From Chlamydiota bacterium (lineage in GTDB: Bacteria; Chlamydiota; Chlamydiia; Chlamydiales; SM23-39), in NCBI GenBank assembly GCA_048498835.1, contig JBEHXF010000050.1:1-12672 (forward strand): a stretch of 12,672 nucleotides of DNA, given 5' to 3'. Shown here piece by piece: positions 650-1,468 of this stretch; position 1 is the first letter of the stretch, and every line of letters begins with the position of its first letter. The notes below the pieces were generated by a model, which was given only the letters and a program-made list of their open reading frames with translations, made no database searches and had not been told where the DNA came from. The position numbers were made by a program, and so were the translations under genes.

Positions 650-1468
650 ATGACAAATCCAATTAACAATCCCAATATTAATACTTCAACAAATTGGGTT
701 CCCTTTACTACAGATTCAATAGCCGATCGAATAAGTGAAATCGCGCCTCATCGAATTTCTCAGTTAAATGTTCGTGGTCAATATGAAGGGAATGGCTCTA
801 TATCATTTTCTAACTTAAGCCAGCGTGACCAAGAGAAGATTTTGCAATGCCTAGAATCTGGCCCAATACTTGTGAGAAATAAAAAATGGGAAAATTTAGC
901 TCAGGTTAAAGGGCATTTCCAGCAATGCTATAAAGTCAATCTTAGCCCCCTGGATATATGCGACATGTATCGGAATCAATTTCATGATTTCCATCCCTAC
1001 AACCTTAAGGATTCTACAAAAACTGTTCTTGAAGTTTTTAACGAGGGCAGAGCAGCTGCAAGAAAATATTTAAATCTTCCTGTTAGACCTCTTCCTTCAC
1101 AACCTCAGTCACAAACACAGCCCGCTCAAGCAAGCAAACCGATTCTCCCCCCAGTTCCTAAACCTACAGAAAGAATTGATACTCTAGATAAAATGAAGAA
1201 ACATTCTTTATTTCCAACAATGGCTAATTCAATTAAAGCCCGAAAAAATGGCGCTCTAAAAGAAAAGCAAGAAGCAATTCTCAAAAAACACAATCTCCTT
1301 GTAGATGAAGCTGTAATTGATGAATATGAATACGAAAAAAAGATAAGTAATAAAAGACCCTCTTCTTCTACCGATCTTCCCCCCTCTAAAATAGCAAAAA
1401 CCACTAACGATGAAGTCGACGCCAACGTATTATTGTCTCTGAGCAAAGCAGAAGCAGAAGAGCAGTAG
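650..1468 (+). CDS. Orphan 272-aa protein; candidate secreted nuclear effector with a winged-HTH-like domain
   Basis: The long ORF is called from 617, but ATG 650 has the AGGA RBS and a TATAAT lies at 620-625, so 650 is preferred. N-terminus is N/T/P-rich (MTNPINNPNINTSTN), followed by an HTH-like segment, a Pro/Gln linker and a basic C-terminal motif. AT-richer than its neighbours. Confidence 0.8.
   Translation: MTNPINNPNINTSTNWVPFTTDSIADRISEIAPHRISQLNVRGQYEGNGSISFSNLSQRDQEKILQCLESGPILVRNKKWENLAQVKGHFQQCYKVNLSPLDICDMYRNQFHDFHPYNLKDSTKTVLEVFNEGRAAARKYLNLPVRPLPSQPQSQTQPAQASKPILPPVPKPTERIDTLDKMKKHSLFPTMANSIKARKNGALKEKQEAILKKHNLLVDEAVIDEYEYEKKISNKRPSSSTDLPPSKIAKTTNDEVDANVLLSLSKAEAEEQ

Follow-up and report, generated by a model that had tools for sequence, protein, structure and literature searches.

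The closest described counterparts of the protein considered here are the chlamydial nucleomodulins NUE and cpnSET, and in the accessible part of one source NUE-type SET effectors are treated as established nucleomodulins of chlamydiae (PMC7819608). A second point of comparison is provided by the type-II Sin3-interaction domains (SIDs) of KLF9/10/11/16, HBP1, Ume6, Tet1 and Sap25, which are short amphipathic helices in disordered regions with an LxxL core. The running text of the relevant papers, as far as it was available, gives the Sin3 patterns A[AV]x[VA][LV], phi-phi-x-AA-xx-phi and LxxLL (PMC1557813), the reversed pattern phi-xx-L-phi-x-phi-A (PMC8657803), the pattern DxxA(A/V)phiVLxxIM (PMC3293586) and, for Tet1, an A-I-x-A-L-x-x-L face with an LxxL core (PMC6168491); the figure alignments of these papers may contain further variants. 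The same text of PMC1557813 describes one aptamer for which AxxLL bound PAH1 better than LxxLL. The EAR-motif effectors HaRxL21, Jsi1 and Naked1, which the accessible portions of the literature present as oomycete and fungal effectors of plants, recruit the corepressor TOPLESS.

The window, by which we mean the whole 12,672-nucleotide stretch of DNA that was analysed, is contig C50 of a chlamydial genome of 1.97 Mb that is 97% complete. According to the part of PMC8242063 that was available, the SM23-39 family is represented by metagenome-assembled genomes only, and the type III secretion system belongs to the core genome of the phylum. Between lpxD and corA the window carries an orphan open reading frame (ORF) in which a sequence-only reading had seen an IS630 winged helix-turn-helix (HTH) domain put to new use in a secreted repressor that recruits Sin3. 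The account that we favour, tentatively and at somewhat less than even confidence, is that of a young, species-specific type III effector that would enter the host nucleus and act as a non-enzymatic adaptor. Like NUE and cpnSET, as described in the accessible part of PMC7819608, the orphan is chlamydial, we infer for it a type III route and entry dependent on a nuclear localisation signal (NLS), and it has a KR...KIA form in common with the SET ORFs of its own genome. Unlike them, it lacks a SET or other enzyme domain, is unrelated in sequence and occurs in one species only. The gene and its surroundings are as follows:

3 to 455, forward strand: 3' part of lpxD, the left flank, with Hexapep repeats and 56-74% identity to the lpxD of relatives
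461 to 476, forward strand: doubtful sigma-54-like site TGG-N8-TTGCA, 1 of 20 intergenic matches genome-wide
597 to 625, forward strand: sigma-70-type promoter-like site GTTACA-17-TATAAT, matching at 10 of 12 positions
641 to 644, forward strand: Shine-Dalgarno-like AGGA, 5 nt upstream of ATG650, read by eye
650 to 1468, forward strand: orphan ORF, candidate type III effector, 272 aa, GC 0.37
1515 to 2435, forward strand: corA, the right flank (PF01544, E 1.5e-37)

The orphan is almost certainly a real gene. The probability that 272 codons are free of stops at the base composition of this ORF is about 1.5e-8, so the frame is not a product of chance, and the start at 650 is favoured over one at 617 because of the AGGA at 641 to 644. 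The GTTACA-17-TATAAT site is weak on its own, since 3 promoter-like sites were observed versus 2.9 in shuffles. The genome encodes rpoN; the sigma-54-like site occurs in none of the 48 lpxD-corA gaps of relatives, which is not significant, and TGG-N8-TTGCA is not enriched upstream of genes (4 cases versus 2-6 for control spacings). The GC content of 0.37 compares with a genome median of 0.47 and is the 19th lowest among the 1234 ORFs of at least 200 aa, within a set of 1817 ORFs obtained by our own greedy ORF calling.

In relatives, lpxD is located no more than 3 kb upstream of corA in 48 of 74 corA loci. The gap between the two genes is at most 330 nt in 39 of these 48 loci and is occupied by other genes in the remaining 9, and we therefore regard the site as variable and the orphan as an insertion specific to its lineage. 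The genes found at this gap in the nine relative loci (L064, L071, L075, L077, L085, L092, L118, L122 and L132) include ORFs that were labelled by eye as glycosyltransferase-like, kinase-like and HTH-like, and several inserts look effector-like by eye. The closest named relatives of the corA gene are at most 75% identical and come from metagenome-assembled genomes, mostly labelled as chlamydiae; identity to the corA of SM23_39 and Anoxychlamydiales records is 58-65%. The source genome thus probably belongs to the SM23-39 family. The window also holds speE, pyruvate dehydrogenase (label by eye) and dnaQ-type genes. Two further ORFs of low GC, neither with a significant family match, are present at 4374 to 5543, opening with the basic motif LGKRER, and at 5550 to 6041, with two paralogues in the genome. 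An alpha/beta-hydrolase ORF at 7519 to 8661 matches the Chlamydia CHLPS family DUF818 (E 4e-6).

The orphan matched only itself among 5.8 billion proteins, and none of 44 candidates among longer proteins was a homologue. Two other matches were obtained among 1.84 billion representatives and neither was accepted, as they are eukaryotic chitin-binding and NACHT repeats with summed weak scores (best 8.8 and 3.9 bits). No homologue was present in 60 relatives. Matches in 2 of 102 family genomes (E 0.01-0.04, both inspected and rejected) and in 3 of 399 order genomes (E<=0.01) are at chance level, and matches of the C-terminal 51 aa in 5 of the 102 family genomes (E 0.02-0.5) were likewise rejected. 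Metagenome and genome contigs yielded no homologue and the ESM Atlas no usable match; no enzyme family matched in Pfam, NCBIfam or PHROGs, of which the last two gave nothing below E 0.03. A 151-base contig from a freshwater-labelled run, apparently filed twice, covers 1239 to 1387 and shows 5 differences there; a piece of corA from the same run shows 8, and it follows that a close allele is present elsewhere. No RNA record was listed with the gene.

The protein can be divided into the following parts:

650 to 763, forward strand (residues 1-38): S/T/P/N-rich disordered N-terminus, candidate secretion signal, pLDDT ~30-39
764 to 1084, forward strand (residues 39-145): predicted folded domain of a beta-hairpin and four helices, containing the HTH-like 815 to 973
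1085 to 1174, forward strand (residues 146-175): Pro/Gln-rich linker by sequence, coil of low pLDDT
1352 to 1399, forward strand: imperfect bipartite NLS-like KR-x10-KIAK, failing the strict pattern and fitting a relaxed one
1409 to 1444, forward strand: terminal amphipathic helix with 4 of 5 positions of the type-II Sin3-interaction motifs

The earlier description of these parts was borne out in part. Positions 815 to 973 encode residues 56-108, 1352 to 1399 encode KRPSSSTDLPPSKIAK (residues 235-250) and 1409 to 1444 encode DEVDANVLLSLS (residues 254-265). The Pro/Gln linker is present in the sequence, the low-complexity N-terminus is disordered by model and rich in S/T/P/N, and a Pfam search confirmed that there is no DDE domain. 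Single-sequence AlphaFold2 gave a mean pLDDT of 45 for the whole protein, with low-confidence helices at 176-233 and 256-271. When residues 39-145 were modelled alone in the same way, pLDDT reached 68.9 in one of five models and 38-45 in the other four. The best VIA match of this domain had a Z of 5.6 (rmsd 3.8, 76 aligned), Foldseek found no match at E<=0.001, and none of the 50 best VIA rows for either model was recognisable as an HTH protein, Z being at most 6.2 there. Rows for the PAH-like HHD domain (Z 3.9-4.1) were within noise. Prediction of a complex between residues 39-145 and 228-272 scored 0.00, which is no evidence in either direction.

The proposed IS630 origin was compared with the winged HTH of these transposases (PF13592 HTH_33, PF13565 HTH_32). 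In its favour, the helices predicted at 58-69, 83-95 and 100-108 have HTH-like spacing, residues 86-108 look right by eye in their hydrophobic pattern, and donors exist in the phylum because 33 of 151 Chlamydiota genomes contain an IS630 HTH_33. Given the helix spacing, residues 39-145 may adopt an HTH fold. Against it, Pfam at E<=10 returned nothing for either the whole protein or 815 to 973, and the source genome has no HTH_33 match. A profile HMM was built from 27 of 30 chlamydial IS630 loci, with L042, L046 and L053 omitted as short or broken. It scored the segment at -2.9 bits, below the best of the reversed protein (-0.4), and the best stretch of the orphan (-1.9 bits) lies outside the segment and ranks 375 among the 1187 ORFs scored out of 1817. 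An ungapped PSSM over helix 2-turn-helix 3 of the IS630 members did recover the claimed register, at a score of 2.7 that ranks 406 of 1817 ORFs and is reached by 367 of 1817 reversed ORFs, whereas the members themselves score 27.7-49.6 (in-sample). The Arg and the Gly of the wing, each present in 20 of 27 rows, are replaced by Asn and Phe, so that the R-x-G-[FYL] wing is missing, and the third (recognition) helix is acidic, with a net charge of -2 versus 0 to +5 in the 27 IS630 rows. The orphan also differs from an IS630 element in having no DDE domain, and no terminal inverted repeats were found around the gene. By Pfam, HMM and PSSM alike the resemblance does not rise above chance, and with chance-level profile scores, no wing residues and no basic recognition helix the idea of a repurposed IS630 DNA-binding domain was not borne out; IS630 ancestry is, on sequence grounds, without support. 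The complete proposal of an IS630 domain turned into a secreted, Sin3-recruiting repressor is exceedingly improbable and appears largely refuted by the sequence already.

The suggestion that the protein is secreted fared better, as its context supports it. The genome encodes injectisome genes (sctU, sctV and copN in consecutive order, plus sctJ), and the gene combines low GC and species-specific insertion with an S/T/P/N-rich N-terminus. S, T, P and N account for sixteen of the residues from 2 to 26, which ranks 5 of 1654 ORFs, and N-termini with at least 11 such residues occur in 26 of 286 low-GC versus 37 of 1188 high-GC ORFs; this score is our own and crude, and a CopN-like control ORF reached only 5, the median. 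Type III secretion signals are described as serine-enriched in the available text of PMC3589343. Taken as a whole, these features make it probable that the orphan protein is secreted.

The evidence on nuclear targeting is divided. Two basic clusters 10-12 residues apart do lie in a disordered region, as in a classical bipartite NLS. The strict bipartite pattern, KR-x10-12-K[KR]x[KR], is not matched, as the second cluster is KIAK. A relaxed bipartite pattern is matched (P = 0.024 from 2000 shuffled versions of the orphan protein). With the orphan excluded, the relaxed pattern is found in 7 of 140 effector-like ORFs versus 2.4 +/- 1.2 in shuffles (maximum 4 in 30). For low-GC ORFs the count is 10 of 285 versus 5.6 +/- 2.3, and for high-GC ORFs it is 24 of 1188 versus 22.4. 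The strict pattern is similarly enriched in both classes (10 of 1188 high-GC versus 3.9 expected, 4 of 285 low-GC versus 1.2). Across the 1817 ORFs, 8 have the form KR-x9-12-KIA, versus 2.3 +/- 1.4. Both SET-domain ORFs of contig C31 are among them, one with KR-x9-KIAR and the other with KR-x12-KIAD, each within a disordered linker. The relaxed and KIA patterns are post hoc, having been written with the orphan in view, and the cut-offs for effector-like ORFs are our own. The classical bipartite NLS is given as KR[10x]KRRK (PMC13311002). The genome has six SET matches, and SET genes are present in 102 of 103 family genomes. The argument from the company of the SET ORFs is, as we read these sequences, better than the pattern statistics. 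Nuclear targeting is plausible from these motifs, and a secreted orphan protein would somewhat more probably than otherwise be nuclear; at ~31 kDa it is small enough to enter without an NLS.

Several other ORFs of the genome that are Pfam-negative or contain TPRs have cleaner bipartite motifs than the orphan. Among the low-GC ORFs with bipartite NLS-like motifs are tandem pairs at G000:C2:46201-47807, C20:21745-23060 and C49:1640-3835, of which the C20 pair has TPRs and the C2 and C49 ORFs have no Pfam match.

The terminal helix shares with type-II SIDs its short amphipathic form in a disordered region and an LxxL core (L261-x-x-L264, in a predicted helix of low pLDDT), the latter being a very common feature. 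It differs in having Asp257 at the first Ala of the KLF/Ume6/HBP1 motif, with 4 of 5 positions agreeing, and the orphan has no recognised DNA-binding domain. The stretch D257-A-N-V-L-L-S-L264 fails A[AV]x[VA][LV], phi-phi-x-AA-xx-phi, the reversed phi-xx-L-phi-x-phi-A and LxxLL. AxxLL is present, but it also occurs in 62 of 285 low-GC ORFs. Near-matches at 4 of 5 positions are found anywhere in 744 of 1654 ORFs and within 30 residues of a terminus in 176 of 1654, and among ORFs with a relaxed NLS a terminal near-match is seen in 3 of 55 versus ~6 expected. The SET ORF C31:22376 is, suggestively, one of those three. A regular expression fitted to the orphan and to this SET ORF matched 3 of 1817 ORFs versus 2.1 +/- 1.3, however, and a broad SID expression matched 1 of 101 SET ORFs (including the C37 pair of this genome). 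A search for PAH domains in 400 genomes gave two borderline matches, none credible. The SID likeness noted earlier is thus not above chance by motif statistics.

That the helix is nevertheless a true Sin3 PAH ligand recruiting a host HDAC complex, with no transposase origin, is a subset of the favoured account and is itself unlikely. It draws on the agreement with A[AV]x[VA][LV]xxphi at 4 of 5 positions together with the LxxL core, as these are given in the available text of PMC1557813, PMC8657803 and PMC6168491, and on the similar terminal helix and KR...KIAR of the SET ORF C31:22376. It also draws on GATA-finger ORFs of other chlamydiae that start or end in motifs resembling eukaryotic repression motifs. 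The Asp at the published Ala, the four failed patterns, the commonness of near-matches, their shortage among NLS-bearing ORFs, the chance-level count of the fitted expression and the single broad match among 101 SET ORFs speak against it. We keep Sin3 mimicry as a small chance because chlamydial GATA-finger proteins carry motifs that look like eukaryotic-type repression motifs. Equally improbable is a wider toolkit in which Sin3/HDAC would be brought to chromatin chosen by the new helical domain, alongside SET and GATA-finger mimics that carry corepressor motifs. If the helix binds a corepressor, the orphan would resemble the EAR-motif effectors of oomycetes and fungi, as the accessible literature describes them; it differs from these in lacking LxLxL and in that another corepressor is proposed. 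No paper on a bacterial Sin3-PAH mimic was found in the open-access literature that was available.

Two broader alternatives bear on the same observations. The protein may stay inside the bacterium, as a horizontally gained or newly arisen product that has no role or one that does not concern the host. The 9 of 48 relative loci with other genes at lpxD-corA favour this, since glycosyltransferase-, kinase- and HTH-like inserts indicate that the site collects genes of any kind. The effector-like N-terminus, the basic disordered tail and the intact frame with its promoter-like site and Shine-Dalgarno sequence speak against it; we consider residence in the bacterium rather unlikely. The other alternative accepts a type III effector, but one whose action lies outside the nucleus or that gets in only by diffusion, with the basic motif a matter of chance and the helix structural or binding a cytoplasmic partner. 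It is consistent with the failed strict NLS, with a relaxed pattern that turns up in 2.4% of the protein shuffles and in 24 of 1188 high-GC ORFs, and with the 176 of 1654 ORFs that have terminal SID near-matches. The motif, however, sits in a tail that is disordered and has a Pro/Ser linker, and it resembles the motifs of the SET ORFs; this alternative too has a low, if appreciable, probability.

Under the favoured account of a nuclear adaptor, the disordered N-terminus would serve as a type III secretion signal and importin-alpha would bind KR-x10-KIAK in the host cell. In the nucleus the protein would act as a non-enzymatic adaptor, with the helical domain 39-145, of no detectable transposase origin, binding either chromatin or a nuclear protein of the host. 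A second host protein would be engaged by the terminal amphipathic helix, acting as a short linear motif; many partners are conceivable, a Sin3 PAH domain among them.

Other nucleomodulin-like ORFs were seen in this genome. One (G000:C14:18188-19018, L184) combines four GATA zinc fingers (PF00320, E 1e-10) with an NLS-like tail, and in a SET ORF (G000:C31:22376-23302, L149) an N-terminal SID-like helix that agrees at 4 of 5 positions is accompanied by KR-x9-KIAR. A 78-aa repeat with an HTH-like end is present in five copies ahead of a SET domain and in further copies in four other ORFs. These repeat ORFs include G000:C31:20236-22353, C74:2979-6089 and C10:24018-24245 (L182, L183 and L197), and most have NLS-like motifs. 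The repeat is restricted to the source genome apart from 2 weak matches among 102 family genomes. The orphan was considered as a further member from a likeness by eye and rejected (2.4 bits, E 19; hhalign probability 0.4).

GATA-finger matches were found in 9 of 300 chlamydial genomes, including tandem GATA zinc-finger ORFs at L253 and L260 (G296:C2, ~818900-820500), L252 and L257. Some of these GATA-finger ORFs end in MAISYLLN or MAIGYILN and start with LPSIHQL, and another starts with FSIDSV; we take all four to be eukaryotic repression-type motifs. These ORFs look like mimics of eukaryotic transcription factors with repression motifs. No paper on chlamydial GATA effectors was found in the accessible open-access literature.

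Among environmental chlamydiae, orphan candidate effectors are nothing unusual, and a further one without homologues or culture is of modest interest. Better leads may be the NLS-bearing SET, GATA-finger and repeat proteins of this genome and the GATA-finger proteins with repression-like motifs elsewhere in chlamydiae. If Sin3 binding by the orphan were true, it would extend corepressor mimicry, seen in plant-pathogen effectors that target TOPLESS, to bacteria and to the Sin3/HDAC hub.
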